Translations under genes and position numbers: made by a program
The notes under the pieces: generated by a model
Database searches by the model: none
Told to the model about the DNA's origin: nothing
What the model saw: the letters and a program-made list of their open reading frames with translations, nothing else
Assembly (NCBI GenBank): GCA_951406725.2
Contig: OX597819.1
Location: forward strand, 42,594,001-42,658,000
From: Octopus vulgaris
Lineage: Eukaryota
Direction: 5' to 3'
Length of the DNA: 64,000 nucleotides
Shown here: piece by piece, positions 6,740 to 51,175 of the stretch
Layout: each line of letters begins with the position of its first letter
How positions within the stretch are numbered: the first letter of the stretch is position 1

Positions 6740-7545
6740 ATTTGATGGTGAGGCGCAGAGGTAGGTTACTTTTGGGTACCTTTTGAAATTGATCTCTTCT
6801 CAAAGAAGCATAATCTGCACTTGCTGCTGCTATTAATGTATAGCTTGCATCTTTCTAAGGTCACCCACTTTATGCAGTACTCTATGGTGCCTTCTTTCAA
6901 AGCCCAGACGTACTTGCCTGCAGTTATGGCATTACATCTCTCTGAGATGGTGTATAAGGACGTGTGGTTATTAAAGTGGATTCTCACGAGGTCTGACATT
7001 GACCCCACATATTTCTGCACACTTGGTTGTCCATTTGCTCCTTGTGCTGTTACTTCTACCTGGTAAACAACAGTTTCCATATTGCAGTGGCTGTTTAGTG
7101 GACAAGTTGTGTTACACCTGTATGAGCATCCTGTCTCAGCCTTGGAGCTGGGCCTACCTGCTAAAATCTTTTTTACACTAAGTGCATAGCTAAAGCATAA
7201 TCTCTGTATGTCTTTTGCATATTTTGTTGAATCCATTGCTACAGACGAAACTAAACTAAGGAACATTTTACCTAGTGTGAACCATTACTTTTCAGTTGCG
7301 CTTTCTCTTGTGGTGGGGAGCTAGGCTCTGACTTATCCTTGAAACCACGAGCAGCAAGAGCCTGGTTGTAGTACTGGGCGGTAGCATCAAATTTCTCTTT
7401 GCTCTGGAGTTTCTCCTGCTGACACCCTTAATCAGGTTCCTGAACACTGTGGCTTGATGACAGGGAGCTGTGTTAATGTAAGACGACTTCTCATTTCGTT
7501 TCCAAAAGGACGTATATGTACTTGATTCCAGGTCCAGGGTCAGAT
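6740..7545 (-). mobile_element. Degraded Penelope-like element fragment (RT thumb plus GIY-YIG endonuclease)
   Basis: ORF 6766-7266: CPLNSHCNMETVVYQVEV...KYVGS...YVWALKE...IKW...CRLCFFEK, a GIY-YIG pattern of PLEs. Confidence 0.75.
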
Positions 7546-7573: not shown

Positions 7574-8380
7574 TCAGTTATATGGTTTCTCTCTTGTGTG
7601 AGTGTATTTGTGATGAGTAAAGTGACATTTTTGAGAGAATGATTTGCCACAAATATCACACTGATATGGCCTCTCATTATTATGGGTAAATTCATGAGTA
7701 GTCAAATGCTGTCTTTGTACAAAGGATTTACCACAGATATCGCAGTGATATGGTTTCTCTCCTGTATGAATCGCTTTGTGAGTGGTAAGGTTACTTTTTT
7801 GAGAGAATGATTTACCACAAATATCACACTGATATGGCCTCTCATTAGTATGCGTAAGTTCATGAGAAGTTAAATGACTTCTTATTACGAAGGATTTACC
7901 ACAGATATCGCAGTGATATGGTTTCTCTCCTGTATGAAGGGATTTGTGATAAGTAAGGCCACTCTTATGAGAGAATGATTTACCACAAATATCACACTGA
8001 TGTGGCCTCTCATTAGTATGGGTAAGTTCATGAGAATTTAATTTACCTCTTACTGCAAAGGATTTACCACAGATATTGCAGTGATATGGTTTCTCTCCTG
8101 TATGAATAGATTTGTGATAAGTAAGGCTATCTTTTTGAGTGAATGATTTACCACAGATATCACAAAAATATGGTTTCTCTTCACTATGAATGTATTTGTG
8201 TCTGGTAAGGTTGCTTTTCACCATAAAAGGCTTTCCACAGATATCACAGTGATATTGTTTTCCTCCTGCATGAATACGTTTGTGAATAGTGAGATTTCCC
8301 TTACTAGATAGAAACTTTTTACAGATATCACATTGGTATGATAATTTTTCACTTTCTTTTGTCACCTCTTGAGGATTCAT
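7574..8380 (-). CDS. Tandem C2H2 zinc-finger protein ZNF-A (9 fingers, no effector domain seen)
   Basis: 268-aa ORF of CxxC-x12-H-x3-H repeats with TGEKP/TNERP linkers; upstream acceptor TATCATTTCAG at 8710. Confidence 0.92.
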   Translation of the reverse strand: MNPQEVTKESEKLSYQCDICKKFLSSKGNLTIHKRIHAGGKQYHCDICGKPFMVKSNLTRHKYIHSEEKPYFCDICGKSFTQKDSLTYHKSIHTGEKPYHCNICGKSFAVRGKLNSHELTHTNERPHQCDICGKSFSHKSGLTYHKSLHTGEKPYHCDICGKSFVIRSHLTSHELTHTNERPYQCDICGKSFSQKSNLTTHKAIHTGEKPYHCDICGKSFVQRQHLTTHEFTHNNERPYQCDICGKSFSQKCHFTHHKYTHTREKPYN

Positions 8381-8915
8381 TATTGTTCAGTTTTTCTTTC
8401 TTCTTTATATATTTCTCTGTTGATACAAAAAGTTCTACAGCTATAATTAGAGCAAATCTAATCTTCGTGAATATCTGAAGGTAATACAAACACCTTTGCA
8501 GATTTTTCCAAGTATATATTCCTGGCAATGGAGGAAAGCAAATGTTGCTATTAATTCAGAAGAAACATTTCAGTTATTTACCAGGGATTTGTTACAGAAA
8601 CAGGGTTATATATATTATTGATAATATCTTCCATTAGTCTTCAAATGATGATCAATATTCATGATGTATCTGATGTAAAAACTCCTTTATACCACTAACA
8701 GCTCATATTCTGAAATGATACAGAAACAGTAGAAGATATAGGAAAGACTTAAAAAGCAGAGATTCAACAATAGAAAATATAACTACATTTTCATAATGAT
8801 AAACTGTGGATATAAACTTTTACCCCAATAATTAGTCTTTAAAATTTATTTCGTTATTAAAATTATATCATACAACCTTGTGTAATGTCCACATATGCAC
8901 GGCCTTCAGCTCATC
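8381..8915 (-). promoter_or_regulatory. Conserved intron end, splice acceptor (AG at 8710-8711) and 5' UTR of ZNF-A
   Basis: Homologous to 24255-24762 (-), 32200-32765 (+) and 39490-39947 (+); pyrimidine tract followed by TCATTTCAG|AATAT. Confidence 0.7.
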
Positions 8916-11610: not shown

Positions 11611-12204
11611 ATCGGTTGGTGCTTTTTATACATGTTTGTGTGTGTGTGTGTGTGTATTGAAGTTATTGAGTTGATGTCCAGTCATAGAGTGACCAAATGT
11701 TTTGCATCTACAAAGGCTTTGTGTATGCAGAACCATTGATCAGTTAATAATCTGACATTAACTTGATTACTTTAATATATATATATATATGTGTACTAGC
11801 AGAGTTGCCCTTGTTATATGTAATTGAAGAATTAAACTTTTCTGTTATATTTTCTGTAATGAACTGGAATACCTATGTTTCAAATTTCATGAAAATTGCA
11901 GATGAGGGTTATTTCCTTCTTTACACCCCCTAAAGAAATTGTAATCATACCACATGTATCCCATACTACTGATTTTTATGCGCATATTCCAAAATTCCAG
12001 TCTTATAGAACCTGTTAAAAGGATTTTTCTCCTGATAAATGGAGGTCATGGAACTTTAAAATGTGAGAGTTGAGGCCCCTATTGAGGGTGGGTATCTTAA
12101 TGTCAACCAGAGAAGTTGAATTGTTGAGAATCTTTTTAACTTGGATCCTATATCTATTGTTTGAATTTCTCTGAAATAGGAAATATATGCTCACTGGGTT
12201 TGTA

Positions 12205-13485
12205 CGAGGGACGTTCAATAAGTAATGCCCCTGACCCACTTGCAATTGTTTGATCTAGCTGAAATTTTGCATGAGCAATTATTTCTATCTCTATAGATTA
12301 AATGGCAAATTACAGCTCTGAACTAATTGTGGTTTCTGATTTACAGGTGTTTGAACTGAGTCAAATGTGAAATGGAGCCTGTTGAGTGTCGAGCAGTGAT
12401 CCGGTTTTTGTATTTGAAAGGACGCACACTTTTGATGAAATGAAAGTAACTTATGGTGATGATGCCCCGTCATATGACCTTGTAAAACGCTGGCATCGTG
12501 AATTCAAACATGGTCGGAACTCTGTGGAAACAGTTCCCAGATCTGGTCACCCCGCTTCTGCCATTGATGAGGCATCTGTCCGTCAAGTTGAGGCTGCTAT
12601 TTTGGAAGAGCGACGCATAACTATTCGCCAAATAGCCCACGAGGTCAAGATTAGTACTGGGTCTGTGGAAACTATCATTCATGACCATTTTCATATGCAA
12701 AAGATGTCTGCCAGGTGGACTCCCAGGTTGCTCACACCTTTACAGAAGCAAGAACGCGTCGAGTGCTCGAGGATGAATTTGGAGATGTGCCAAGAAGATG
12801 AGTCAAAATTTTTCAAAAGACTGATTACACAGGATGAAACCTGGGTCCATCACTATGATCCAGAGACCAAAGCCCAGTCAATGCAGTGGAAGTACCGTGA
12901 CTCACCTCCAAAGAAGGCAAGGGTGCAGCCCTCCGCTGGCAAGGTCATGCTCACAGTCTTCTGGGACCAGGACGGAGTAGTGATAACAGATTTCCTGGCA
13001 AAGGGTACCACAATTACAGGAGCCTATTATGCTTCACTTTTGAGGAAATTAAGAGAAGCTATCAAAATCAAGAGGCGGGGCAAGATCAGCAAAGGCATCC
13101 TCCTCCTGCAGGACAATGCTCCGGTCCACAACTCGCGTGTCACCAGATCAGAAGCACAAGCATACGGCTATGAACTCCTCCCCCATCCCCCCTACTCTCC
13201 TGACCTTGCACCCTCTGATTTTCACCTCTTCCCAGCCATGAAGTTTGTTTTTGAAAGGAAAGCGTTTCCCAGATAATGCAGCTTTGATTTCTGAAGTCAC
13301 GTCGTGGTTGGAGGACCAAGCTAGGGTCTTCTACAAAAACGGTCTCCAGAGCTGCATCAAACGATGGGAGAAATGCGTAACTCTGTGTGGTTCCTATGTA
13401 GCAAAAGACTAATAACTGTGCCAAGTTTCGTTGCTCTACTGCTATGGGAAGTGGGTCAGGAGCATTACTTATCGAACACCCCTCA
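12205..13485 (+). mobile_element. Full-length (1281 bp) mariner DNA transposon, defective
   Basis: TIRs CGAGGGACGTTCAATAAGTAATGCCCCTGACCCACTT and AAGTGGGTCAGGAGCATTACTTATCGAACACCCCTCA, flanked by TA on both sides. Confidence 0.92.
12372..13412 (+). pseudogene. Mariner DD34D transposase with frameshifts near both ends
   Basis: Start MEPVECRAVIRFLYLKG at 12372; motifs WTPRLL, TQDETW, LQDNAPVH, YSPDLAPSDF; C-terminus RWEKCVTLCGSYVAKD lies in another frame. Confidence 0.88.
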
Positions 13486-13709: not shown

Positions 13710-14720
13710 TAGTTGGTAGAATGTAACAAGTTAGGGAGCAAAAGTTTCTTTGTGGTTTATCATTTAATGCTGAGAACCCAATGTTTGTATATCTTTTTAA
13801 GCCGTCCAAGAATCACTGTACATAACTGAGCCAGGTTTGATGTATTTTTGAATTAGTGGAAGCAATGTAGCTTTGTCACGCTTCTGACCAGTCACAGGAA
13901 CAACAAAGCGACGTTTGCTAATCCGCTCAATTCCAGCGAATATACAATCTATAAATGGAATTAATTGATTATATCTATAAGAGCAATCAAGACGATTGGA
14001 ACGGGAAAAAAATGTAAACTATTAACGTGGATCATTTTGAGAGAAAAGAAACAGCAGAGATATGACGCAAGTGATAATTTTATGATAAAACAATAAACGG
14101 CTTTGGATGGGGACAATTAGCAAATGGAATATTTACTGTAATAAAAGAAATGAAAATTTGGTGCTTTTTCATGGCAATACCAAATAAAATACACTTTAGA
14201 TTTTATTCGCCTAATTAAAGAAGTTTACCGGAGTACAGAATTTATATCGATGTCACACTAGCAATATTGAAAACTTTCAGTCAAGTAGCCAGGTCCATTG
14301 GCTTTTATTAAAGAACGGGGCGATCCTTCGGTATAGGTACCCTAAGTGGCTGTGTTTGCATTTCTGAAGATAACAGAAACCCTTTTCTTCCACCCCTAAC
14401 CCCTATATATATTTTTAAAAAAACACTTTCTTGAAATGTATCCGATACTTCCGGGTCGTATACCGAAGTTACGCCTAATTAAAATCGATCTTAGACTAGT
14501 AATATTGAAAACTTTCACTATTGTCTGGAATTTCTAATTAGCTAGGTTCATTGGCTTTTACTAAAATAAAATATGTAGTATATCTTACCTGTTAGGATAA
14601 ATAAATCAGTGTTTAATACGAAATATCTTTAAATACATGAAAAAGAGATTTAGCGGGAAATGTCATTTGAAGACTCTACGAAAAACCGACACTGTAAGTC
14701 AACGAAATTACCCTCAGATG
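13710..14720 (-). repeat. Duplicated ZNF first-exon/intron module (donor at 14588, exon ~14589-14710)
   Basis: 14017-14310 is near-identical to 9745-10040; TATCTTACCT donor and GAAAAACCGACAC...AACGAAA motif as at 10062 and 25959. Confidence 0.7.
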
Positions 14721-15014
14721 TGTATTTCGTATTATTACTCTTTTGGTCAGTTTTTAATGTGTCGGTGATTACATTTTAGAAATGCGAATTTTAAGAAAAA
14801 GATGCAAAACTGCTTATTTCAATTCAATTGCTACTTATACAGGGCCGGATTAAGGTCCACCGTTGCACGTAGAAAATTTTGCCCCTCATCCCATAAAGAT
14901 TATGTAATTCAAAATGTAAACAATAACAAGCCATAAAATAAATTTTTATTTTTCAAAACGAAACGAAACAGTAAGATGGAAAATAATGTTTATTTTTGCA
15001 TACTTCCACTTTAC

Positions 15015-17569: not shown

Positions 17570-20500
17570 GTAAAAAAGAAGTTTGAAAACGCCACTATAT
17601 TAGATAAATTTTAATTTTCTTATGAATTTTACATGTTTCGGTTCTTGAAAAAACGAACCTTATCAAAAATATTATAGAAAGAAAAGTGCAATAGAAAAGT
17701 TCATAATTGTTTCTTACTGGTCTCAATAGAATCCATGTGGTGGTGTTTTGTCGGTAGTTGGTATAATCACTATATTATAGTTGAGTGTAGTAAAGAAGTT
17801 CATTATTGTTTCTTGCTGGTATCAAAAGGAACCATGTGCTTATTTTTTTTTTCCTTGTGTTCCAATGGAATGGTAGCAGCAGTAGTGATTGTTGGTCGTA
17901 GTAGTAGTAACCGTGGTGGTGGTTGGGGTTGCAGCAGCTTATTGGTTGTGGTGGCTAAGTTGTGGCTGTCCTAGCAGCAGCAGTATGTTTAGTGGCTTAA
18001 ATGGCAGTAGTAGCAGTTACTGTTGGTCGTAGTTTTGGCAACTGTGGTGGTGGTTGGGGTTGTAGCAGTTAAGCTGTGGCCGTAGCAGCAGCAGTAGTAG
18101 AGGACTGTTGCTCATAGCAGCAATAGTAGTGACCACGGTGGTTGTAGTAGTAGTGATAGTGGAAGCAGTCGTAGTGATCGTAGTGGTTGTGGTAGAATTT
18201 CATTTTCCTTTTCGGAAGACCAATGTTTTGTTTTTATATTCCTGGCCTATTGTGTTCAAACTTGGTCTAAATTTTTTGATGAAATAAAGTTCTTTATTTT
18301 GGCGTTGGGTGAAGGTTACGCTGTCACTGAATTTGTAAAGTGGGCAAGTTGTAAATTTCGGATTTTCATTTGAAGCACATCTATCTATGTGTCCGCTGAC
18401 TGGTATTTTCCGGTATTCAGGGTTTCTAATTTGGGATTTATGCACCGCCATCCTTTTACGTAAGCTATTTTTTGTATGGCCTATATATTGCCTATTGCAA
18501 CCTGCACATGTTAAGATGTAAATTAAGTTTTCTGATGCACAGGTGAAGTTTGTTCTAATGGTGAACTGATGGCCTTGCTTTAGTATAAATTCTGAACCTT
18601 CTACCAAGATGACACAGATTCCGCAGTTGGGCTTTCCACATGTTCTAACTGCTGGTTTTGTGGTTGATGTTGAGTGCAGTTTAGCTTGGGTTAAAATCCT
18701 TTTCAAGGATTTTGGTTGCCGTTACTTTTAATGATGGTGTGTGTTTCGAGGATCCGGTTCATCTTTGGGTCTCCCTTTAGTAGGGCTGTGCTTTGTAGTA
18801 TGGTGCTGAAGGCCGCATTGTTAAGTGGGTTGTGTGTAGAGATATAGGGAAGGGTTTTTAATTTTTCTTTCTTTTTTGGTTTTGTTTGTCTCAGGTCTTC
18901 TATACTTAATTTAAGTGCCCGTTGGATTGCACTGTCTATTAGAGGCTGTGGATAATTTCTATTTGTGAGTGTAGTTCTAAGTTCCTGGAGACGTGTGTGT
19001 TGGGTGTTTGTGTCTGATATTATGGTGCAAATCCTAGCTAAACAAAAAGGGACATTTATTCTAGTGTGTCTTGGGTGGCATGAATCAAAGGGTAGGTACT
19101 GCTTGGAGTTTGTCGATTTATAATAGATATCTGTGTCTATTTTGTTGCCGGCTTTCTTAATGAGGACATCTAAAAATGGCAATTCTTCTTCGTTATGATC
19201 CATCGTGAACTGAATATTATCATTTATTCCATTTAATAGTATTTTAAATTCCTCAAGTTTCTCTATACTTTTATCCCAGAGGATAAAGCAGTCGTCGAGG
19301 TATCTTTTCCAGTTGTTCTGGATATAGGTGGAGAAGGTGTTTCCATATTTCTCGAGTGTTTTCTGGTAGAGTATTTTCTCGAGGTATCCCATCACTAGGT
19401 TGGCAAAAAAGGCGCAGTACGCGTGCCCATCGCTGTTCCCGATCTTTGTCTGTAGAAATTATTGTCAAAAATAAAGTAATTGTTTTCTAAAATAAATGTA
19501 AGTCCTTCTATTATAAGTTCTTTATTTATGCGAGTTGGGAGTTCAAAGTAGTTATTTAGCCAGAAAGTGATCGCTTCTATTCCTAGGGTGTGAGGGATGT
19601 TTGAATAAAGGTTAATTACGTCGAAGGATACTAGAAGGGTTTTCTCATTGACTGTTTTGGGGAGGTGGTTAAGCATGTCTATATCATCTCTTACGTAGCT
19701 TTTGATGTGCTTTAGGAAAGGTTTAAGAAGTGTGTCTAAGAAATTGCTGAGGCGGTGAGTTTCACATGCTGGGCCTGCTATTATCGGTCTAAATTTAAGA
19801 TCATTTGGTGAAGGGATTTTGATGAGTATATCGGTAGATGTTTTGCATGTTTCACTAATTATTTGGCTTTTGTGGACTTTAGGGATACCGTAGAACAAAC
19901 TTGATTTGCACTTAAAGTTAGTGATGTATTCGTACTCCTTGTCCGTGAGTCCTTCTCGGTATGTGTTGATTAATGTCCTGAGGTTATACATTATTTTTGG
20001 CTGATTATACTGTTGGGCCCTTTCATAATACGTTTCATCTTTTAATAGGGATAGCACTAAATTTTTATAATCGTTTGTAGTCATTAATACTACCGCGTTG
20101 CCCTTATCTGCCTCCTTAATTGTTATTGTTTTGTCTTCTCTTAGTTTGATGAGGTCATTCCATTCTCTTTTGTTAAAGTTTTGGCTATGTTTTTGTTTCT
20201 TGGTGAATTGAAAAGGGAAATTAGTTATGTAGTCACAATAGCAGTCTAAGGCTTTATTCTTTCCCTTGGTAGGGGTGTAATTGCTGTTGTTTCTAGCTAT
20301 TGATTCATCTATTTGTTTGCCATGAAATTCCTCAGCAAGTCTTAGTTTCCTACAAAATTCAGAAATATCATCTTTCATTTCATAGTAATTAGAACGTTGT
20401 GGGGTTGGTGTAAATTTAAGTCCTTTGGAAAGTATGCTTATTTTGTTAGGTGTAATATCTTTATTTGAGAGATTGATTATTTTAATTACCTGTGGTTTCT

Positions 20501-21240
20501 TTTGTTTGTCCGTTGCCATCGTGTATCCCTGTTCCTGTGTGTTAGGTCTAAAAAATGGTTGGTGTAGTTATGTTCAAAAATACTGTTTATCTGTCTCCTG
20601 TTGTTATCATTTTCAGAGTGAGTTTGTGGTGCTCTGTTTTGTAGTGTGTTTTTGTACCTCGTGTTCCGTCTTAGTTTATCAGGTATATTGTGTTGGTAGT
20701 TGTTTCTTCCGTAGTGTATTTGTTGTTTGTTAGGTTTGTATAGTTGGTTCCTAGGGTAGATGTTTGGTGGTGGAGTCTTAGTTTGGTTATGTGGATTGTT
20801 TTTCATAGAATTGTATGTTGTAGCCCTTTGGTTCTCTAAATGGTTTGGTGGGCCCCTGTAAGTGTTTTGGGGTTGGTGTAGGTAGTGTGGGGTACATTTT
20901 AAATGTATTTTTCTGGTGTAGAGTGTGTTTAGATTTCTTGGTGGTTGTTCCATTCTGTTAGTATTTGGTTTTGTTTTACTTAATTTTATGAAGGGGTTGT
21001 TGGATATGAGTTCATTTTTGAAGTTGGTTTCATAATCCAAGAACCAGTTGGCGCTCTTTTCCCATCGTTGGAGGGACTTTGGTCCTTCTTTTTCACATTC
21101 TTCTTTCCATAGTGTAAGTAATGTTTCAGTATTGATGTTGTCTGTTAGTTTGATGACTTCTTCGTTGTTTTCTACATCTATGGTTTTTACTTTTTCTTCA
21201 TTCGTCTTAGCTCTCAGTTTAAGTACTTCTATTTCCATCC

Positions 21241-21241
<1 letters not shown>
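17570..21241 (-). mobile_element. Near-full-length Penelope-like retroelement (Neptune-like), frameshifted
   Basis: Collinear ORFs 20486-21240, 19395-20519 (LSKGLKFTP, ADKGNAVV, FYGIPKVHK, RPII, SFDVINLY, GTAMGT), 18703-19395 (RYLDD, LPFLDV, SCHP) and 18200-18706 (GIY-YIG: CGKPNCGIC, NLIYILTCAGCNRQYIG); flanked by (TA)n. Confidence 0.92.
17628..17675 (-). ncRNA. Degenerate type I hammerhead ribozyme in the 3' pLTR of the Penelope-like element
   Basis: Minus strand TTGATAA-GGTTC...GAACC-GAAA-CATG-TA; two core changes relative to CUGAUGA. Confidence 0.5.
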
Positions 21242-21286
<45 letters not shown>

Positions 21287-21512
21287 TCCTGTCATAACCT
21301 GGGACCTTGAAGACTGCTTAAATGCAAGAAAGTATACTAGTCCCTTAATATTTGATATTCAATATTTCATCTATTCAATAAGACAATCAATACTTCATTT
21401 CATTTTACTATATATACTATTTATATTATATATTCTATATTCTACATTAATATTATAAAGAATATAAATAAAACATAAAAAAGAGAGTTGGAATTTCTTT
21501 GAATACACACAT

Positions 21513-21543
<31 letters not shown>

Positions 21544-22295
21544 CATACATACATGTTGTGGTGCACCTAAGCACTGTATACAATAATTTCATTATTATTA
21601 TTATTATACACACACACACATTAATAATAGGCAGAAGTTACAGAGTGATAATGGCCAAATTCGTGTTTGATAAGTTCCAGTACACGAAACTCTCAGCTTT
21701 TGACTTAATTTCTAATTTCTGCAGATGATATATACACATACATACAAATATGTGTAAAAAAAATCTCATCACACAATCGAACCAATAAAAGAGCCTCTGC
21801 CTGGTCGCTCGACATGCTAAAAATAGCAGCCAAAGTATCCCTCTACTTAAATCACACGCCCATTGTACGTAACGTCCTAGATTATCCCTAAAAAGACAGT
21901 TTGCTGAAGGCTGGAATGTCTTTGATGATAGGTTTGTTGTATCAGGGTTGATTTGAGGCTAAATAACAATAAAATTATTACTGAGACTGACCAACGATGG
22001 AGCCTGTATGTGGTTGTATGATCTGCTAGAAAAAGTAGCCAAACTTCTTTATATTCTGAATAGAAAAACCTCTGATACATTCAACCAGTATCCAAAGTTT
22101 CAAACTGTTTAGCTAAGAAAAATTAATTAAAAAATCCATGACTGGGATTGACAAGATCCGTGAAACTACTCTCGTACAACACTGGATATTAGCCATAATA
22201 TGTACTAAGTTCCCATAACATTTTCTATTTATTTCATACGAAAATCTGAATAAAATTACGTTAGTTAAGGGAATCTCAATATTTGGAATATGGAT

Positions 22296-22699: not shown

Positions 22700-23159
22700 T
22701 ACTTGCGATCTTTTATTCTTTCAACTTTTCTTTAACTTCAGCTACTTCATCATTCAGTGAAGAATATTGTTTTAACCACAAGATAGCTCTGATTGTAATG
22801 GATCTGTGAGAAAAGGCGCTCCAGCCATGACCATTTTGTCTTATTCTTTTCTAGAAGTAATGAATTCCCAAGTGAACATTATAAAATAATATAAACTTGC
22901 ATTATTTTTTTTTCTTGAAAACGGTAATTTCATTTCTTTTCTTTTCGTCAGGAAGATTCAGTTACTCTTTCTAGCACTCAGGTAAAGTCTCTCTTGTTGC
23001 CTTGACTTGTTCCCTTTGTCACCTTTTGTTTAGTCCCGAGTTGGATCTGATTGGACAGATATGATCAAAGACGTCCCAACTGTGACCGTTCCGTCTTTCT
23101 TCCCAGACATAATGGAGGCTATGTATATATCACAGGATAGAGGTTTTTCTATTCTGTAT

Positions 23160-24251
23160 ATAAAAAAGTTTGGCTACTTCTTGATTTTTGAACTTCTTCT
23201 CTTGCAGGAAACCATCAAGGTGCTTGAAAAAGTGGAAGCTGGTAGGAGAAAGGCCTGGGGAATAAGCTGGGTGGGGAAGAACTTCATAGCCAAGTTCCCT
23301 CAACTTCTGGATCGTCATTAGTGAAATGTGGTCAAGCAATGTCATTAAGAATGGTTGGCCCTCTTCTGTTGACCAGTCTGGAATGGACAAGTAACAGTTT
23401 TGCATTCATTTTGGCAATTTCATAGCAATATGTTTCTGTAGTAATGGTTTTTCTAGGTTTTAAGAAGTTATAGTGGATGAGTCCATCTGCACACCACAAA
23501 ATAGTCACCTTAACCTTCTTTTTGAAGAGTTTGGGTTTAGGGAAGATGTTTGGTGCTTCAATTTGGTCCAACCACTGCGAAGAACGTTTTTTATTATTGT
23601 CCACTTTTCATCACAAGTTACAATATGGTCAAGAAATGGATCAGTCTGGTTACAGAGAAAAAGCGGCAAGCAAATTTCATATTTGCACAATTACTAATTT
23701 TCATTCAAATCGTGTTTTACCCATTTGTCAAGCTTTCTTGATTTTCTGAGAGCACGCAAGTGGTTGCAGGCAGTTTTCTGGCTAACTTTAAGTTCTTCTG
23801 CCAGTTTCCGAGTAGTTTTACATGGATCTTTCTCAATGACAGTCTTTAATTGACCATCATCGATGACAGACGGGCGTCCACTACGCTCACGATCTTCAAG
23901 GCTGAGATCACCACTACGAAATCGTTTAAACCATTTTCGAGCTGACCACTCACTGGTCATTTCCTCACCAAATGTTTCATTGATATCGCGAGCACTTTCA
24001 GCTGCTTTACGTCCTTTTTTGAAGTTGAAAAGCAAAATTGCTCGAATATCACGCTTTGATAGTTCCATTTCAGATTATTATAACTACAGTGAAAAAATAT
24101 CAATGTTAATTATATTGATGCATTTGGGCAAGTCTATGTCTGTATTGTCAGACAATTGGAAAACAAATGTTTAAAAAGATTCAAAACTCTGCAAAAATCC
24201 AGTACAGATTTTTCATGGTTTAAAATGTTGCTTACTTTTTACTGAACCTGA
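23160..24251 (-). mobile_element. Second mariner (different subfamily), 3'-truncated and frameshifted
   Basis: 5' TIR-like TCAGGTTCAGTAAAAAGTAAGCAACATTTT; ORF fragments MELSKRDIRAILLFNF..WVKHDL, IVTCDEKW, WCADGLIHY, HPAYSPGLSPTSFHFF; no 3' TIR found. Confidence 0.85.
23694..24068 (-). CDS. Mariner transposase N-terminal DNA-binding domain ORF (124 aa; expression unknown)
   Basis: Uninterrupted HTH-RSGRP-HTH region ending just after the WVPHEL-like motif WVKHDL. Confidence 0.45.
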   Translation of the reverse strand: MELSKRDIRAILLFNFKKGRKAAESARDINETFGEEMTSEWSARKWFKRFRSGDLSLEDRERSGRPSVIDDGQLKTVIEKDPCKTTRKLAEELKVSQKTACNHLRALRKSRKLDKWVKHDLNEN

Positions 24252-24254
24252 GGT

Positions 24255-26110
24255 TTCTGTTTCTTTGTTCATTCAAATACTTCCACAGTTATATTTACAG
24301 CAACTCCTATTTTTGTCAATATCTGAAGATGATATACACACATTCGGTGTTCAAAGAGAATGTGAAATACTTTTGTAAATATTCCAGGAAAACAAATGTT
24401 GCTATTAATTCAGAAGAAATATTTCAGTTATTCACCATTCATCTATTATATAAACTGGGTTATGTCTATTGTAACATCTTCCATTAGTCTTCAAAAGACA
24501 ATCAATATTCATGATATATTTGACGTAATAATTCCCTTTTACCACTAACATCTCATATTCTGAAATGACACAGAAACAGTAGAAGATATAGGAAACACTT
24601 GAAAAGCAGAGATTCAACAATAGAAAATATAACTTCATTTTCATAATGATTAACTGTGGATATAAACTTTTATCCCAATAATTAATCTTTAAAATTTATT
24701 TTGTTATTAAAATTATATTATACAACCTTGTGTAATGTCCACATATGCACAGCCTTCAGCTCGTTTTTGATATTTATTTTGTCATGGTTTTCGACACTCT
24801 ACAATTTTGTTGCAATTATTTTCAAATTTGGTGTATAGATTAAGTTTTGTTTACTAATTATGAAAATGAAAACCATTTTGGTACTTCTTTGAACCCCACC
24901 TCCTAATACTTTAAAACCAGTAATTAAAAAAAAAATTTTTTCAGATCTATGTTTTCCTATTTTACTTCCTTCCGTTATTAGACTCTGACCATGCTGGGGG
25001 CACCGCCTTGAAGAATTTATAGTCGAATTTACCGACTCCAGAACTTTTTTCTTACTTGTTTCAGTGAAGGCGGTGCCCCAGTATGGCCGCAGTTTAACGG
25101 CTGAAACGAGTAAGAAATAAAAATAAAACGAAAGACAACCGAAAAATATAACTGAGGAGTTTTGTCCTACACTCGTTGCAGTCAGCAATTTGTTTTATGA
25201 TGTTGCAGATAATTGTTTATTCCCAGGCGTAGGAGTGGCTGTGTGGTAAGTAGCTCCGGGTTCAGTCCCACCGCGTGGAACCTTGGGCAAGTGTCTTCTA
25301 CTAAATTAAAACATTAAGAACTGGCCATTTTAACTTTAGCATCCGATAAAATAGTAATAATACGAGGTACACAGCATCTCCCGAGTGTTAGTTCGGAATT
25401 CCTTGTGAGTGGAAACTGAAAGAGGCCCGTCGTGTATATATATGTATATGTGTGTGTCTGTGTTTGTCCCCCAACATCGCTTGACAACCGATGCTGGTGT
25501 GTTTACGTCCCCGTAACTTAGCGGTTCGGCAAAAGAGCCCGATAGTATAAGTACTAGGCTTACAAAGAATAAGTCCTGGAGTCGATTTGCTCGACTAAAG
25601 GCGGTGCTCCAGCATGACCACAGTCAAATAACTGAAACAAGTAAAAGAGTAAAAGAGGAGCTAAATAAAAGAGAATTATTTTGACAGAATAAACAGCAAA
25701 TACAGATGTTTAATAAATGATACCTCTAAAATAAAACAACAGACGGCTTTGAATGGACACAATCAACAAATGAAATATCTACTGGAATAAAAAAAATTAG
25801 AAATTTGGTGTTTTTTCACGGATATGCCAATTTTATCGGAGAATAGAATTAATATCGATTCAGACTTGTAACACTTGAAACTTTCACTTTTGTCTGAAGT
25901 TTCCAATTAGCCAGGTTCATCGGCTTTTACTAAAAATAAATTATGTATTCTATCTTACCTGTTATCTATCTATATAAGTATATATATATATATATAAAAT
26001 GATAAATAAATTAGTGTTAAATGTGAAATATCTTTAAGTACCTGAAGATGAAATATGATTTGAAAACACTTCGAAAAACCGACGCGGAAAGTTAACGAAA
26101 TGAACTGACA
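24255..26110 (-). pseudogene. Orphan ZNF 5' module (first exon ~25959-26110, acceptor at 24560, 5' UTR) lacking a zinc-finger ORF
   Basis: 24255-24762 aligns with 8410-8915; 25700-26110 aligns with 14040-14710 and 9780-10200; no fingers seen downstream. Confidence 0.75.
25225..25655 (+). mobile_element. OR-type SINE with internal deletion/insertion
   Basis: GGCGTAGGAGTGGCTGTGTGGTAAGTAGC...GACTAAAGGCGGTGCTCCAGCATG...AACAAGTAAAAGAG. Confidence 0.8.
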
Positions 26111-26683
26111 CTAGGAAGATGCTGTGTACCTCGTATTATTAATATTTTATCGGATGCTAAAGCTAAAATGGCCAGTTCTTAATGTTTTCATTTCGGTAAT
26201 TATATTTTGGGAAAATGAATTGCAAGAAAAAGATAGAAATAACAAAAGATACAAAAATATGCCTAGACTGTTTATTTTCAATTCAATTGCTACTTTTACG
26301 CTATACTGTTAACGAACCCCTAAGTTGTAGGGATGCAAAGAAATTAACAGCTTGTCAGGCAGATACGTGGCGTGCAAAGAGTGAAAAGACTTAATTTTTA
26401 CCCCACCAACCCTTCCTTTCTTTTATTATTTGTTTTTACAGAAACCCCGTTTCTCGGCTACAGAGATTCCGAATCTGAAAAAAGAAATTGGCAAAAATCG
26501 ACATTTCAAAATGCTGGAGCACCGCCTTTAGTCGAGCAAATCGACCCCCAGGACTTATTCTTTGTAAGCCTAGTACTTATTCTATCAGTCTCTTTTGCAG
26601 AACCGCTAAGTTACGGGGACGTAAACACACCAACATCGGTTGTCATGCGATGTTGGGAAGACACACATACATACATATATACT

Positions 26684-26716
<33 letters not shown>

Positions 26717-26724
<8 letters not shown>

Positions 26725-26960
26725 AAAGGGCTTAGTAAAATAAATTACTTTGCCACACACTGAACTCATTAGAAATAGCAGCTAAAAAAACTTTTTAGCT
26801 GCTATTTCTAATGAGTTCAGTGTGTGGCAAAGTAATTTATTTTACTAAGCCCTTTTATATAATGTAATAATTTGAATTCGCCTTAAATGGTCCCTTTACA
26901 TACTGAACACTTGGTGAAATTGATTAATAATTAATTAATTAATTTTACCCTCAATTGTTG

Positions 26961-27003: not shown

Positions 27004-28245
27004 GAGTGTATTTTTACCTTGTTAACAATTAACACGGAAAAATAAATAAATAGTTACCAGGGCAGCAAAAATCTCACAAGTAAAGATGTTGTAACTCCTT
27101 GATTTTAAAGGTAGAAACTTCGTGTTTACGTTGAATATTTGAATAATATGAATAAAAAATGGAGTTAACGCAGGTGTAAACAAATATTTTTACTTTCGAC
27201 ACATGTTTCGAAAATTCCACTGATACTATTCAAAAGAATAAATGGTATAAACAATGCAATCTTCTCTTCGGGAAAGTGAAAAAAACGAAACTTGTCAATA
27301 CGACATTTTAGCAAAAAATGATGGATTTGTATAGCGATAGACAGAACGCTATTAATATTGTTTAAAAAAACGTTATATGATATAACGTCATAAGTAGCTA
27401 ACAGAAAGAGTAGGGATATTAATAGTGAATGTTAAATATAAAGGAAGTTAAATTATATATAATGATAGAGACTACTTATATGCACTAAATGTATGTTTTT
27501 GCCAATGCTTACATCTGTAATAGAATTAAGTTTATGTCAAATAACTCTAAGGTTAAAAATTCTATATACCAGTGTATAATCAGTACTCGTAATAAAGTAC
27601 GATTTTACCTTGGAAGCACATCGTTAGAGTTATCTAAAAGAATTTCTATCCATTACTCAACATTTAGGGATAGAAATAAACGGAATAGTACCGGTCTCAG
27701 CAAACTGATTTGGGATTTAAAAGACCACAATGAACAATTTCATTTAGAATGGTTGATCCTCTTCATTTCGATACCATATGACAAAGGCAAGAAATTCTGT
27801 CTTCTCTGCAATTCTGAGCTATTTTCCATTTTTTTTTCTAAAAATACTCTAGTAAACACGGTTATAGAGCGAGCATACAGATGTAAGCATTGGCAAAAAC
27901 ATACATTTAGTGCATATAAGTAGTCTCTATCATTATATATAATTTAAACTTTAATTTCCTTTATATTTAACATTCACTATTAATATCCCTACTCTTTCTG
28001 TTAGCTACTTATGACGTTATATCATATAATGTTTTTTAAAACAATATTAATAGCGTTCTGTCTATCGCTATACAAATCCATCATTTTTTGCTAAAATGTC
28101 GTATTGACCAGTATCGTTTTTTTCACTTTCCCGAAGAGAAGATTGCATTGTTTATACCATTTATTCTTTTGAATAGTATCAGTGGAATTTTCGAAACATG
28201 TGTTAAAATATTTGTTTACACCTGCGTTAACTCCATTTTTTATTC
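27000..28245 (+). mobile_element. 5'-truncated Penelope-like element with inverted pLTR (arms 27150-27519 and 27876-28245) around a GIY-YIG fragment
   Basis: ORF 27489-27923 NSIYQC...FYLGST...RISIHYSTF...STGLSKLIWDLK...CLLCNSE; ~370-bp arms are near-exact reverse complements. Confidence 0.88.
27192..27277 (-). ncRNA. Type I hammerhead-like ribozyme (U4C core variant) in the inverted pLTR
   Basis: ACTTTC-CCGAAGA-GAAGATT...AATTTTC-GAAA-CATGTG-TC-GAAAGT. Confidence 0.6.
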
Positions 28246-28479
28246 GTATATATATATACATATATATTTTTTTTCTCTAGTTTCAGTTCAGAGCTGCGGC
28301 CATGCTGATGCACCGCCGTTTTGTGCTACACTGTTATTATGAAGAACCTCGTTTAATATGTGACACTTGGTGAAGAATGGAGTTTGATATAGCTACTCTC
28401 ATTTGCACCTCTTGCCGTGAGGTAGGTTCATCTGGGACTCTCGACAGGAAGATGTCCAGCTTTGATTGAAAAACCGCTA

Positions 28480-30615: not shown

Positions 30616-32765
30616 GTAAGTAATTAATATACATTTCGGTTAAGTCGAAATCTCCGAATGCCTTGCTTTTTTATGTGTATGAAATATACCGTGGTCCCTT
30701 TCTCTTAGTATCGGCGATGGTTTGTCTACGTGTATATTCGGCTAAATTTGGGCAAGTGTATCCGAAAGATATACCTCTGTTTATACGATATATATGAAAA
30801 CAAATATTCACTTATAATGATAGAAAAACCAAAATGATTACTGCTCTCTGACTGTCGTTCTGGGCATAGTTTACGATTACGAGAACAATGATACAGTGGC
30901 ACAGTACCAAGGGAACAGGATTGGGGAGTTGGAGGCAAGCATCGTGCATGAATCGGAAATGTGAGGAAGCGAAGAGATATAGAGACGTAGCTTGGTTTGG
31001 CGTGGTAAAGTGTGAGAAGTTTTCTTGTTAAAAGTGGGTGAAACACAGCTTCTAGAATTCAGTTGCACATTTATTTGGGTACTACTAGAACAGTGGTCCG
31101 GTGCGCGCACTCGCGCATCCACACTAGCTAGTTGTAAGTAGTCGATCCTAGAACGACTCTTTAACCCTAAACGTAACCCTAACCTTTGTTTATAAAAATA
31201 ATTTATTTAATTTGTGTAAAAAAATTATTACATTGTTTTATATAAGCAGTTTTGAAGAGAGCAGGTTAGTTAACACTGTGGACCACAGTATTTTACTGGT
31301 ACTTTATGTTTATCGACTCCTTGGATAACCGAATTGACCACTTTGCTGGCCTCTGGTCAACAATGACAAGGAGTGGGGAGAGGATTGTTGGAAAGTTGAC
31401 ACGATACGTTTTTTTTTTTCCCTTCATAACTTTCAGGATCGAGTTTGGCGCCCTATCACGAACATGACGAAAAACCAGTCTAACGTTCAAAATCGTTGGA
31501 AGAGGTTATCGACTCCTTGGATAGCCAAGGTGTCAATGTTGACCACCTTGCTGACCCCTCGTCAAAACTGTAGATATGTCTGTTTGATCTGTCATGAAAA
31601 CAGCCAACCTTTTGTAATAAGCTTGCTCAAGCGAAGTTGACCTGGGACTAAACAACAGTGATGCTCCATGGGAGTCTCTATGTGGTCGGTCGACATGCTG
31701 GAAATAGCAGTTAAGTTCACTTCAAATTCTATTATCTGGTATTGAAAATTGAGAAGGAAGGCTGAGATGGTCATGGTAGGAATGCCTTTCTTCATAATTC
31801 TACTCTGACAGGCCTGACCTGCGACTTAACAACAGTGGATGTCTAGGCATATCTAGGGGGTTGGTCAACAGTAAAAATGTTTTACCTAAACTGCCCGTTT
31901 TGGTTTTAAAACTTAAGAATTATCTTGAAGAATAATATAGTTCAGGCAATAGAATGGCTGAAGCAAAGGTGGGATGATCATGGCTGGAATGCCTTTGATC
32001 ATAGACCTACTCTATCAGGACAGGCCTAGGGCTGAACAACAGTGACTAATTATGTTGCTGAAGATAGTGTTATCACAAAGCCTGGTGTAGTCTCCTGGGT
32101 CACCAGCTCCTCTCAAGCAGTCCAACCCATGCCAGCATGGAAAATAGGCGTTAAATGATGAAATGATGATTGTGTAGTTTAAAATGTTACATAATATCTG
32201 AAGGTGGAGGAGCCGATGCCTGTGAATATGTAGACATTACCTCAAGGTTGTAGAATATAATTTTAATAACAAAATAGAAAGTATCTTTTTAGGTAAAAAT
32301 TTATATCCACAGTTTATCCTTATAAAAACATACTAACATTTCTATTATTGAATCTCTCCTTTTTAACTATTTTCTTGATTTTATATTGTTTTTATATCAT
32401 TTCAGAACATCAGACGTCTGTGGCACGAACGGATTTTTACTAGAGATACATCAAGAATATTGATAAACTTTTAAAGACTAAAGGAAGATGTGATAAATAA
32501 TTGATATAAACATGTTTACATAATATGTCTATGATCAATAACTGTGAAATACTTTGTTCTGGACTGAGATTGATAGCGACATTTTTCTTCATCACTGCCT
32601 GGAATATTTACATTTCACATTCCAATTAAACATGGATACATTTACAAGGAAATCTGTAACCTTCAGATACTGACAAAGTCACTAGAAATATATATATATA
32701 TATATATATATAAACACAAGAAAAATATATATTTATTGTGGTAGTATCAGAAACATTATAGAACA

Positions 32766-33932
32766 ATGAGTTATGTTAGAAAGGATGGCTTATTTCCTGA
32801 AGAAACGACGAGAAAAAGAGAAAAATTATCATACCATTGTGATATCTGCAAAAAGTCTTTCTCTCAGAGAGGTTACCTAACTACTCATAAATGCATTTCT
32901 ACAGGAGAGAAGCCATATCACTGTGATATCTGTGGTAAATCATTCTCTCAAAATAACCTCTTGACTAAACATAAATACTTTCACACAGGAGAGAAACCAT
33001 ATCACTGTGATGATTGTGGGAAGTCATTTTCAACAAATAGTACCTTAAAAACTCATAAATGCAGTCACACAGAAGAAAAACAATATCACTGTGATATTTG
33101 TGGTAAAACATTCCCTGCGTTTAGTAACTTAACTATACACAAACGCATTCACACAGGTGAGAAACCTTATCACTGTGATATCTGTGGTAAGTTATTCTCT
33201 CAAAAAGGTAACTTAACTACTCATACACGTATTCATACAGGTATGAAACCATATCACTGTGATATCTGTGGTAAATCATTTGCAGTAAACGATGTATTAA
33301 CTAATCACAAACGCACTCATACAGGTAAGAAACCATACCACTGTAATATCTGTGGTAAGTCATTTGCTATAAATAGTACCTTGACAGCTCATAAACGCAT
33401 TCACACAGGCGAAAAACCATATCACTGTGATATTTGTGGTAAAACATTCTCTCAGATGAATAATTTAATTCATCATAAACGTCTCCATATAGGAGAGAAA
33501 CCCTATCATTGCGACATGTGTGGTAAATCATTTTCTGGAAGTGATGGCTTAACTATACACAAACGTATTCACACAGGAGAGAAGCCATATCGCTGTGATA
33601 TCTGTGGTAAATCATTCACTCAAAAAGGTCACTTAACTACTCACAAACGTCTGCATACAGGTAAAAAACCATATCACTGTGATATCTGTGGTAAATCGTT
33701 TGCTCTAAATGATGTATTAACCACACACAAACGCATCCATACAGGTGAGAAACCATATCTCTGTAATATCTGTGGTAAATCATTCACACAAAATGGTCAC
33801 TTAACTACTCACAAACGCATTCATACAGGTGAGAAACCATATCGCTGTGATATCTGTGGTAAATCATTTCCTCTTAATGATACTTTATCTAAACACAAAC
33901 TCATTCATACAGGAGAGAAAACGTCACCGTGA
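32766..33932 (+). CDS. Tandem C2H2 zinc-finger protein ZNF-B (13 fingers)
   Basis: 388-aa ORF with [16 protein letters not shown] repeats; finger 1 lacks the last His. Confidence 0.93.
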   Translation: MSYVRKDGLFPEETTRKREKLSYHCDICKKSFSQRGYLTTHKCISTGEKPYHCDICGKSFSQNNLLTKHKYFHTGEKPYHCDDCGKSFSTNSTLKTHKCSHTEEKQYHCDICGKTFPAFSNLTIHKRIHTGEKPYHCDICGKLFSQKGNLTTHTRIHTGMKPYHCDICGKSFAVNDVLTNHKRTHTGKKPYHCNICGKSFAINSTLTAHKRIHTGEKPYHCDICGKTFSQMNNLIHHKRLHIGEKPYHCDMCGKSFSGSDGLTIHKRIHTGEKPYRCDICGKSFTQKGHLTTHKRLHTGKKPYHCDICGKSFALNDVLTTHKRIHTGEKPYLCNICGKSFTQNGHLTTHKRIHTGEKPYRCDICGKSFPLNDTLSKHKLIHTGEKTSP

Positions 33933-34260
33933 CATCATCATTTTCATCAACATTTAATGTCTGTTTTCCATGGCTTTGCAGGAGCTGATGAGGCCAGGGG
34001 CTGCACCAGGTTCCATAGTCTGTTTTGGTTTGGTTTCTATGACTGGATACCTTTCCTAATGCCAACCATTCCACAGAGTGTACTGGGTGTTTCTGACGTA
34101 GCCCCATCACCAGTGCTTTTTACATAGCACCTTGGTTTCAGGATCTCAATTGTGTTATGGTGGGAAGGTCTTCTCCAGTACAGCAATGTACCACATATCT
34201 CAATCGTCTGTCATCTCCTTTATAAGGTTCAGCATTTTGAGATTGGCCTTCAATACTTCA
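33933..34260 (-). mobile_element. RTE 3'-tail-derived insertion immediately after the ZNF-B stop codon
   Basis: CATCATC...TTTAATGTCTGTTTTCCATG...CCTAATGCCAACCATTCCACAGAGTGT. Confidence 0.7.
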
Positions 34261-34480
34261 TCCTTCTGTGGTAAATAATTCTCCCAAGGAAATCACTTAA
34301 CCAGGCATATAAGTATCCATACAGGAAAATATCACTAGTTGTGTGAAATCTCCCATTTTTTTACTGAGTGTTGGACCTAAAAACATTATCTCAATCTTTA
34401 GTCATTTCAGCTGCGAGATTGAGATTTTTCACTTCTGAACTCATCATATTTTGTGATTATTTGTTGAAACCTGAAAGAAG

Positions 34481-39450: not shown

Positions 39451-39947
39451 TTTTTTTTTTTACTTTGTGATTGAGATGGAATAGATCCAATTTTAATAAC
39501 AAGGGAAAGTAACTCTTTAGCTGAAAATTTATATTCACAGTTTATCCTTATGAAAACATACTAACATTTCTATTATTGAATCTCTCCTTTTTAACTATTT
39601 TCTCTATTGTATATTATTTCTATATCATTTCAGAATATCAGACGATTGTGGCATGATTGGATTTTTGCTAGAGATACATCAAGAATATTTATAATCTTAT
39701 AAAGACTAAAGGAAGATGTGATAAATAATTGATATAAACATGTTTACATAATATATCGATGATGAATAACTGTGAAATACTTTGTTCTGAACTGAAATTG
39801 ATAGCGACATTTTTCTTACACACTGTATTTCACATTCTAATTAAACATAGAAACATTTACAAGGAAATTTGTAACATTCAGATACTGACAAAATCAGACA
39901 AGAAAAATATTTATTTATTGTGGTAGTATCAGAAACATTACAGAACA

Positions 39948-41624
39948 ATGAGTTATGTGAGAAATGTAAAGGATGGCTTATTTTGTGAAGGGATGTCAAT
40001 AAAAAGAGAAAAATTATCGTACTGTTGTGATATCTGCAAAAAGTCTTTCTCTAGGAGAGGGAACCTAACTACTCATAAACGCAGTCACACAGGAGAGAAA
40101 CCATATCACTGTGATATTTGTGGTAAAACATTCCCTGCATTTAGTAACTTAACTACTCATAAACGCAGTCACACAGGTGAGAAACCATATCGCTGTGATA
40201 TCTGTGGTAATTCATTCTCTCAAAAATGTAGCTTAACTACACACACACGTATGCATACAGGTGAGAAACCATATCACTGTGATATCTGTGGTAAATCGTT
40301 CGCTATGAATGGTACTTTAACTAAACACAAACGCACTCACACAGGAGAAAAACCATATCACTGTAATATCTGTGGAAAGTCATTAACTCAAAAAAGTAGC
40401 TTAACTATTCACAAACGTCTGCATACAGGTGAGAAAACACATCACTGTGATATCTGTGGTAAATCGTTTGCTCAAAACATAGTATTAACCACACACAAAC
40501 GCCTTCATACAGGTGAGAAACCATATCGCTGTAATATTTGTGGTATATCATTCTCTAGAAGTAATACTTTAACTACACACAAACACATTCACACTGGAGA
40601 GAAGCCATATCACTGTGATATTTGTGGTAAATCATTCTCTCAAAAATGTAACTTAACTATTCACAAACGTCTGCATACAGGTGAGAAACCACATCAATGT
40701 GATATCTGTGGTAAATCGTTTGCTCGAAATGTAGTATTAACTATTCACAAATGCATTCATACAGGTGATGAACCATATCACTGTGATATCTGTGGTAAGT
40801 CATTTTCTCAAAAAAGTAACCTAGCTACTCACACACGTATGCATACAGGTAAGAAAGCATATCAATGTGATATTTTTGGTAAAACATTCTCTCAGATGAA
40901 TGATTTAATTCATCATAAACGCATTCATACAGGAGAGAAACGCTATCATTGCGATATCTGTGGTAAATCATTCTCTGGAAGTAATGACTTAACTACACAC
41001 AAACGCATTCACACAGGTGAGAAACCATATCACTGCAATATATGTGGAAAGTCATTCACTCAAAAAGGTAGCTTAACTATTCACAAACGTTTGCATACAG
41101 GTGAGAAACAATATCACTGCGATATCTGTGGAAAGTCATTCACTCAAAAAGGTAGCTTAACTATTCACAAACGTTTGCATACAGGTGAAAAACAATATCA
41201 CTGCGATATCTGTGGTAAATCATTCACTCAAAAAAGTAGCTTAACTATTCACAAACGTTTGCATACAGGTGAGAAACAATATCACTGCGATATCTGTGGT
41301 AAATCATTCATTCAAAAAGGTAGCTTAACTATTCACAAACGTTTGCATACAGGTGAGAAACAAAATCACTGTGATATCTGTGGAGAGTCATTCACTCAAA
41401 AAGGTCACTTAACTACTCACATACGTTTGCATACAGGTGAGAAACCATATCACTGCGATATCTGTGGAAAGTCATTCACTCAAAAATGTAACTTAGCTAC
41501 ACACACACGTATTCATACAGGTGAGAAACCATATCACTGTGATATCTGTGATAGATCATTTGCTCTGAATGATACTTTAACTAAACACAAACTCATCCAT
41601 ACAGGAGAGGAAACACATCCTTGA
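39948..41624 (+). CDS. Tandem C2H2 zinc-finger protein ZNF-C (19 fingers, one with C to F)
   Basis: 558-aa ORF; paralog of ZNF-B (shared MSYVR start, PAFSN, QMN and LNDTL fingers). Confidence 0.93.
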
Positions 41625-51116: not shown

Positions 51117-51175
51117 ACAATCACAGTTGTCGATAGGAAGGAGGCTCTCTCCTTCCTATCGACAACTGTGATTGT

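Follow-up and report, generated by a model that had tools for sequence, protein, structure and literature searches.

How does the 5′ end of a zinc finger (ZNF) gene come to lead into the DNA-binding part of a mariner transposase, and is the open reading frame (ORF) found there a host gene or a relic? The question is raised by a minus-strand locus of Octopus vulgaris in a window of 64,000 nucleotides, that is, the whole stretch of DNA that was analyzed (contig OX597819.1, positions 42,594,001 to 42,658,000). This AT-rich animal DNA contains many repeats and three C2H2 finger ORFs. An earlier note on the sequence had proposed that a ZNF locus replaced its finger array with a TIR-binding domain. 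The finger ORFs and the parts of the ZNF cassette at the mariner locus are as follows (positions are those of the window).

7574-8386, minus strand: C2H2 finger ORF
32745-33932, plus strand: C2H2 finger ORF
39927-41624, plus strand: C2H2 finger ORF
25959-26110, minus strand: putative noncoding first exon of the ZNF cassette, aligned with four other exon 1 copies
25953-25958, minus strand: splice donor GTAAGA (CAG/GTAAGA at 25959/25958)
24560-25958, minus strand: putative intron with SINE-like repeats
25303-25394, unstranded: inverted duplicate inside the intron, 93% identical to the putative promoter/start segment 26102-26193
24560-24590, minus strand: conserved ZNF cassette acceptor (pyrimidine tract and TTTCAG), invariant in four of four cassettes
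24252-24559, minus strand: ZNF-derived 5′ UTR, ~80% identical to ZNF-A

Alignment of 24260-24762 with ZNF-A 8412-8912 gave 83% identity over 511 columns (E 5e-150), in line with the UTR similarity claimed by the earlier note, and the same block was 72-73% identical to the upstream regions of ZNF-B and ZNF-C. The putative exon 1 comprised 152 nt without an ATG; its 5′ end is uncertain, and a TA repeat lies directly before the donor. The donor was found at 25958 as previously claimed, and its AG/GTAAG was kept in all four other exon 1 copies of the window (donor G at 14588, 10061, 30616, and 38142). The acceptor TCATTTCAG, likewise located correctly at 24560, showed no variation among the mariner locus, ZNF-A, ZNF-B, and ZNF-C, and a second TTCAG acceptor at 24323, inside the UTR, was conserved in all four cassettes. 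Donor and acceptor were both intact despite ~20% UTR divergence, and the final 200 nt of the putative intron was 95% identical to ZNF-A (191/201). By these alignments, the cassette at the mariner locus is a homologue of ZNF gene 5′ ends, and the conserved splice signals suggest that its blocks act here as promoter, exon, and intron. A protein fusion with exon 1 was rejected, given that exon 1 has no ATG. Since the ZNF-like sequence ended at ~24260, where the mariner starts, and the ZNF-A ATG lies 329 nt past its acceptor, the break was computed to lie about 23-30 nt ahead of the expected ATG position, close to the 25-30 nt proposed earlier. Neither tblastn (E ≤ 1) nor a motif scan detected a C2H2 remnant or finger array in 8450-32700; the claim that no zinc fingers remain downstream was thereby borne out, and a shift of the fingers further downstream was rejected.

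The mariner DNA-binding part was co-oriented with the ZNF cassette and comprised the following features.

24222-24251, minus strand: mariner left end (putative 5′ TIR), placed by the end of ZNF similarity and a jump in DNA depth
24084-24100, minus strand: candidate acceptor within the leader of the mariner (T-rich tract followed by CTGTAG), proposed from sequence
23694-24068, minus strand: 124-aa ORF with HTH1, AT-hook linker, HTH2, and WVxHxL linker, pI 9.8
23823-24068, minus strand: constrained core, codons 1-82, with 2 of 80 positions off consensus and at least six silent changes
23691-23696, minus strand: tandem stop codons TAG TAA, three residues beyond WVKHDL
23130-23690, minus strand: decayed, 3′-truncated catalytic region, presumably now 3′ UTR, with AATAAA at 23595

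The left end owes its label as a TIR to its placement at the repeat's edge, where DNA depth jumps, and to a likeness to cecropia-type ends; a search of the window for a partner arm gave nothing with 10 or fewer mismatches out of 31, the best second match having 11/31. Because only one TIR is present, the element is 3′-truncated. Thus, the TIR claimed at ~24251 stood as the edge of the repeat but not as one of a pair. The 124-aa ORF was open, as stated in the earlier note, contained both HTH motifs, and ended three residues past WVKHDL; it matched Pfam HTH_48 at residues 5-54 (E 2e-19) and HTH_32 at residues 43-99, indicating a bipartite HTH DNA-binding domain. Two altered mariner motifs were present, WVKHDL and YSPGL, presumably corresponding to the WVPHEL-like and YSPDL-like motifs of mariners. 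The catalytic part was indeed broken: stops and two shifts of the reading frame interrupt it near 23600 and 23327, and its similarity faded at ~23130; an active autonomous mariner was rejected, as the catalytic ORF is broken and one end only is present. In two large runs, the mariner had a summed contig depth hundreds of times that of its unique flanks, indicating a highly repeated family, although this depth ratio should not be read as a number of copies. Among named proteins, those of Octopus sinensis and O. bimaculoides were most closely related to the ORF. Its protein cluster had one member, with no second annotation at ≥90% identity, and the protein occurs in two collections, solely as a predicted sequence. 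A protein atlas search returned generic HTH_48 clusters only, and the metagenome scans and viral scan detected no copy of this mariner family.

Transcription of the locus was then assessed from sequencing runs. Among the 24 runs listed, none is on record as RNA, 20 contain part of the stretch, and 15 of these 20, from four studies, were guessed to be RNA. Contigs of four of the 24 runs, which do not give the strand, were aligned to the locus, including X1, guessed to be RNA, and X16, which is unlabelled and comprises 68 million letters. Locus-specific contigs with 0-1 differences spanned the border of UTR and mariner in these two runs from two studies (X1, 24113-24415; X16, 24117-24423). The ORF was covered by X1 contigs 23623-23844, 23826-23948, and 24020-24142 and by X16 contig 23516-23946, and X16 contigs extended to 22710, the edge of the examined stretch. 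Both runs were empty at 24570-24693, within the intron, where two large DNA-sized runs had depths of 218 and 9225, and so they fit RNA libraries. X1 and X16 are probably RNA runs, and the locus is probably transcribed. Neither run had cover over exon 1 (25934-26400), and at 24446-24569 cover was sparse or absent, a gap that proves nothing; the junction listing was dominated by an intronic SINE, and the TA repeat at 25962-26006 beside the donor was skipped, so that an exon 1 junction could not show.

The route to translation depends on the acceptor. Splicing to 24560 would leave 491 nt with 11 upstream ATGs, compared with four to five in the ZNF paralogues with the corresponding acceptor. Use of 24323 would leave three at the mariner locus and none in the ZNF genes, and the candidate acceptor at 24084, 15 nt before the ATG, would leave none; X1 contig 24020-24142 runs across this site unspliced. 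The earlier concern that upstream ATGs might prevent translation therefore has weight for the 25959-to-24559 form, but all 11 are closed before the main ATG and the 24084 acceptor would avoid them. All upstream ORFs stopped before 24068, and no host domain is joined in frame to the transposase domain. One reading is that the ORF is domesticated, but that its RNA begins in the UTR block or another upstream exon, leaving ZNF exon 1 and its promoter as bystanders. The border contigs of the two studies give a weak hint of this, ending close together at 24415 and 24423, well short of the 24560 acceptor, and the burden of upstream ATGs on the 24560 form points the same way. However, the exon 1 block, its donor, and the acceptor have each stayed intact and in the same orientation, and the RNA-like contigs take in ~160 nt of ZNF-derived UTR. 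We consider a start outside ZNF exon 1 unlikely and favor transcription from the ZNF promoter.

Conservation of the protein was measured against a consensus of 12 family copies out of 62 matches (either named as Octopus or Logan proteins that were 57-75% identical), with the query excluded. The remaining matches, other mariners at ≤56% identity, were left out, as were the spurious alignments of P0012 and of the first part of P0062 (score 19). Residues 1-82 differed at 2 of 80 scorable positions from this consensus, whose 12 members are fragments of proteins retrieved for their similarity to the query and come from mixed or unnamed species. The 12 other copies, each compared with a leave-one-out consensus, differed at 22-36% of positions (193/737 pooled), giving a binomial P of 1e-8 for 2/80 versus the pooled rate and 2e-5 when 2000 copies were allowed for. 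At one of the two differing positions, R20, the codon is CGT and other copies mostly have H, C, G, or R; R20 is probably ancestral, as the other copies' residues largely fit CpG decay. The remaining difference was a conservative Thr-to-Ser change at residue 25. All 10 CGN arginine codons in 1-82 still encoded Arg; by a hand count, Arg survived in 51 of 95 cells among the other copies. Constraint was concentrated in HTH1, the AT-hook linker (residues 55-82, 0/27 changes), and helix 1 of HTH2. Across residues 83-124, 9 of 42 positions were unlike the other copies (five of the nine read by eye), with six of the nine changes yielding Lys or Arg, and the HTH2 recognition helix (95-104) together with R87 exactly matched the in-frame copy P0050. 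This pattern suggests that HTH2 is only partly held and that residues 83-124 evolve near neutrally, the 82/83 boundary having been chosen after the data were seen. This counts against the proposed gene, and in SETMAR HTH2 supplies seven of nine major-groove bonds (PMC9062482). A profile-free search of 50% representatives yielded neither another conserved copy nor an octopus copy that stays in frame across most of the catalytic part, so the latter was assessed from DNA rows alone.

The best solved relative was the SETMAR DNA-binding domain 7s03 (phmmer E 1.7e-33; Foldseek E 3e-9), which covered residues 1-109, and the structure model had six helices with a pLDDT of 90.5. Residues were mapped as SETMAR numbering minus 330, an offset verified against the engineered sites that PMC9062482 lists. 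The SETMAR dimer residues I341, F344, and F363 correspond to I11, F14, and F33, and the DNA contacts R392, R395, and R417 to R62, R65, and R87, all of which were identical. W41, Q97, K98, and N102 were unlike SETMAR and were shared by 9/10, 2/4, 3/4, and 2/3 family copies, respectively; any target would therefore be the end of this mariner family and not that of Hsmar1. A homodimer model scored 0.45 versus 0.00 for the best of three controls, with 100% contact agreement between runs, a pLDDT of at least 60, and a SETMAR-type interface that takes in residues 11, 14, and 33. This mark was reached by 21/30 solved pairs and 0/23 single chains in a microbial calibration and by 17/29 pairs (animals, 7/16) and 0/30 single chains in a eukaryote calibration, but by only 1/7 eukaryote pairs without an older solved relative; a similar complex has been solved, so the pass, which the model may owe to its memory of SETMAR/Mos1, indicates likeness, not binding. 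The 124-aa protein is small and basic, and it is predicted to dimerize. Such a protein might have been kept for HTH1-mediated contacts with itself or a partner, and not for sequence-specific TIR binding. The strongest constraint does lie over HTH1, the SETMAR dimer surface, residues 83-124 are near neutral, and a precedent exists in Caenorhabditis F-box proteins, for which this role was proposed and whose captured mariner HTH domains showed no EMSA binding to their TIRs (PMC12062965). The unchanged AT-hook linker and the exact match of R87 and helix 95-104 to P0050 speak against it. A role in contacts only is improbable in our view, and binding to the family's ends is preferred.

The DNA test covered 40 of 115 difference rows, and 19 family-majority differences among them fell in the coding part. 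Among the rows listed, the ORF carried seven silent and three replacement changes, versus one silent and eight replacement changes in the catalytic part (Fisher p = 0.020). For codons 1-82, these rows gave at least six silent changes on 52 sites versus one replacement on 194, a pN/pS of ~0.05 (p = 0.0004); four of the six silent changes were grouped in codons 51-55, and counting them as a single event gave p = 0.03. The pN/pS of residues 83-124 was ~0.64. At the silent sites 23904, 23910, and 24030, less than 1% of the depth of run X17 was without the majority base, and at the other three the figures were 3%, 3%, and 16% (hand arithmetic). The silent changes are mostly private to this copy and are therefore not marks of a young subfamily, an origin that was rejected in view of these private alleles and the decayed tail. 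The frameshifted copy P0059 independently had the majority base at codons 51, 53, 55, and 66. By the stops and frameshifts in its catalytic part, the locus copy is old. Measured against the family consensus only, codons 1-82 appear to be under purifying selection and codons 83-124 do not, and the catalytic part appears to decay neutrally. The comparison of ORF and catalytic part that the earlier note had suggested thus favored domestication, and its proposal of a finger array replaced by a TIR-binding domain gained partial support, with constraint confined to codons 1-82.

The note's own alternative was a dead pseudogene. A dead or read-through copy would require that later gene conversion or chance made the 5′ part look ancestral and that the open frame is luck. 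An open frame is by itself little evidence, as the plainly decayed copies P0002, P0003, P0004, and P0006 hold ORFs of 93-148 aa; moreover, the sharp shift at codon 83 could mark the edge of a converted tract, and the silent changes are grouped. Nevertheless, no conversion donor is known and none of the 12 copies came closer than 22% to the consensus, the private silent and replacement changes stood at 6:1 where sites favor replacements by ~4:1, and the CGN codons were kept. A core that is constrained yet carries silent changes leaves the pseudogene little probability, and we conclude from the sequence comparisons that the ORF is likely a domesticated host gene. It is highly improbable that codons 1-82 are an internal coding exon whose weak donor CAT/GTAAAA at 23821 splices HTH1 and linker downstream into a fusion protein: the GT sits exactly at the drop in constraint, but X1 contig 23623-23844 and X16 contig 23516-23946 span the site unspliced, a weak search for longer protein forms gave two matches, both ordinary transposases at 51-55%, and joining to the ZNF-A acceptor leads to an immediate stop (by eye).

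We propose that the domesticated gene arose and acts as follows. A cecropia-type mariner would have inserted in the 5′ UTR ~25 nt ahead of the ZNF start codon, a deletion would then have taken the 3′ end of the element together with the finger array, and stops would have truncated the transposase past the WVxHxL linker. Selection thereafter would have kept HTH1, the AT-hook linker, and the HTH2 contact residues. Transcription would start from the ZNF promoter, and exon 1 would be joined, most plausibly at the acceptor that lies 15 nt upstream of the ATG, a site favored because upstream ATGs are avoided. The product would form a SETMAR-like dimer via HTH1, without an effector, and would hold or bridge the family's scattered terminal repeats via HTH1, AT-hooks, and HTH2. 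At an early stage it may have damped the active family by blocking its ends. A structural or competitive regulator at terminal repeats is the more likely present role, because the mariner family looks extinct; the transposon repressor suggested in the earlier note is doubtful today, all 12 other copies found being heavily decayed. Replacements near zero, a silent drift of ~10%, and the dead state of other copies make a lasting host role likelier than transposon defense alone. The full model, in which a stand-alone gene for a mariner DNA-binding domain sits where a ZNF array was lost, uses the ZNF promoter, and has a product that binds TIRs, is in our judgment moderately probable. More tentatively, octopus ZNF clusters might serve as expression cassettes that can swap their whole payload, here for an effector-less, dimeric, lineage-specific factor that has a ZNF expression pattern and reads, or perhaps loops, dead mariner ends; cephalopods would then have evolved a SETMAR-like network of their own, with no protein fusion involved.

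Captured transposases are well documented in tetrapods, with KRAB or SET as the effector, and in flies and nematodes. With SETMAR, the primate SET-Hsmar1 fusion, the octopus protein shares the fold and the span of query residues 1-109 (PMC9062482), identical dimer residues and AT-hook arginines, and a DNA-binding part kept while catalysis is lost. It differs in being a stand-alone 124-aa ORF without SET or another host domain, in the four base-contact positions (W41, Q97, K98, and N102), which would imply another target sequence, and in its independent mollusc origin. In KRABINER, as described in the accessible part of the report, a mariner was also inserted in a zinc-finger gene, ZNF112, and joined to upstream exons, but a KRAB domain and a full-length transposase are present and ZNF112 persists (bioRxiv 10.1101/2020.05.07.082677). 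In contrast, the octopus locus has only noncoding ZNF parts, its finger array is gone, and its transposase is cut to the DNA-binding domain. The same partial source places the acceptor just upstream of the transposase ORF in eight of nine vertebrate host-transposase captures, a pattern that the candidate acceptor at 24084 resembles (bioRxiv 10.1101/2020.05.07.082677). In Drosophila, CG4570, cag, and LOC26532114 are likewise stand-alone Tc1/mariner HTH genes under purifying selection, and LOC26532114 has a 5′ UTR intron and a promoter shared with its neighbor; these genes differ in having orthologue-based dN/dS and expression data, and the available text does not report them as replacing a ZNF coding region (PMC13548663). 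Caenorhabditis F-box A2 is, in the accessible part of its report, a similar case of a multicopy host gene family capturing a Tc1/mariner HTH (PMC12062965), but there the HTH is fused to the F-box and multicopy, whereas the octopus locus is one copy without a host domain. Assembly-site occlusion, or dominant-negative mariner control, offers a further likeness, in that a catalytically dead dimer on the ends would damp transposition, according to the part of the source available (PMC3687335); however, the 12 other copies of the octopus family are decayed, and maybe nothing is left to repress. By analogy, the octopus gene appears closest in kind to the stand-alone Drosophila HTH genes, SETMAR-like in action and KRABINER-like in origin, without a fused host domain.

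A literature search on octopus or cephalopod mariner, SETMAR, and transposase-derived genes, with most subscription papers and supplements outside its scope, found no report, and the main text of a cephalopod C2H2 paper contained no occurrence of transposase, mariner, or SETMAR. Octopus ZNFs have been tested for predicted binding to transposons, and the available part of that report does not mention transposases (PMC10547256). If real, the locus would represent a datable gene birth to which a ZNF locus contributed a promoter and a noncoding exon only. It would connect two much-discussed octopus features, the C2H2 expansion and the transposon load, and one small protein with one short repeat would offer a test of whether dead transposon ends form a regulatory network without a fused effector. 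In run X19, which is ~3% diverged in the flanks, a 153-nt piece over the ORF end had one difference versus 4.3 expected (P = 0.07).

A second, conserved TTCAG acceptor lies at 24323 in the cassette, the ZNF-gene 5′ module on the minus strand that runs from a putative exon 1 (donor 25958) through a putative intron and an acceptor at 24560 into a UTR and then a mariner. Its counterparts at the C2H2 finger ORFs ZNF-A (7574–8386, minus), ZNF-B (32745–33932, plus) and ZNF-C (39927–41624, plus) are found 66–99 nt 5′ of the ATG, and splicing to this acceptor would leave ZNF-A, ZNF-B and ZNF-C with no upstream ATG. The actual splice pattern of the cluster may differ from that in the earlier note, which had the intron end at 24560. 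An additional exon-1/donor copy, which has no acceptor of its own, was located 5′ of ZNF-A (14477–14744 and 14009–14315, minus); part of it is 94% identical to the start of the ZNF-A intron, and it is possibly an alternative first exon. A degenerate finger remnant (34162–34350, plus side) lies a short distance 3′ of the ZNF-B stop.

Within the cassette, the intron end (24560–24760) is 95% identical to ZNF-A, compared with about 80% for the UTR exon, and is multi-copy in the two large DNA-sized sequencing runs. This conservation could reflect either a regulatory element that the paralogous ZNF genes have in common or gene conversion between them. An inverted 93% duplicate of the putative cassette start region (26102–26193) was observed in the cassette's own intron (25303–25394).

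P0001, the 124-aa two-HTH ORF (24068–23694, minus), derives from an octopus mariner family in which nine of ten other copies, like P0001 itself, carry Trp at the position (P0001 residue 41) of the base-reading R371 of SETMAR, the primate SET-Hsmar1 fusion. Because Trp replaces this arginine, end recognition in the octopus family must differ from that of SETMAR. A 44-nt piece of the mariner's truncated 3′ end (23139–23182) recurs inverted 1.1 kb downstream (22030–22073, 91%).

The window also contains the following elements.

12203–13476, plus: second mariner, unrelated to that of P0001; ends match by eye
18200–21358, minus: frameshifted ORFs resembling a Penelope-type element
54551–55069, plus: 172-aa ORF like the front part of an IS1595/Merlin-type transposase, by eye
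26714–26866, 27146–28249, 50905–51387, 57821–58529 and 62612–63285: long near-perfect palindromes or foldback elements (94–99%)

The second mariner, which holds a 295-aa open stretch with Transposase_1 and DDE_3 domains, is placed antisense between ZNF-A and the exon-1 copy with its donor G at 14588. A Pfam scan of the 172-aa ORF returned no match. In the frameshifted ORFs the likeness is to the reverse transcriptase and GIY-YIG parts of such an element, and similar nuclease-like fragments occur at 6766–7284 and 27489–27923.
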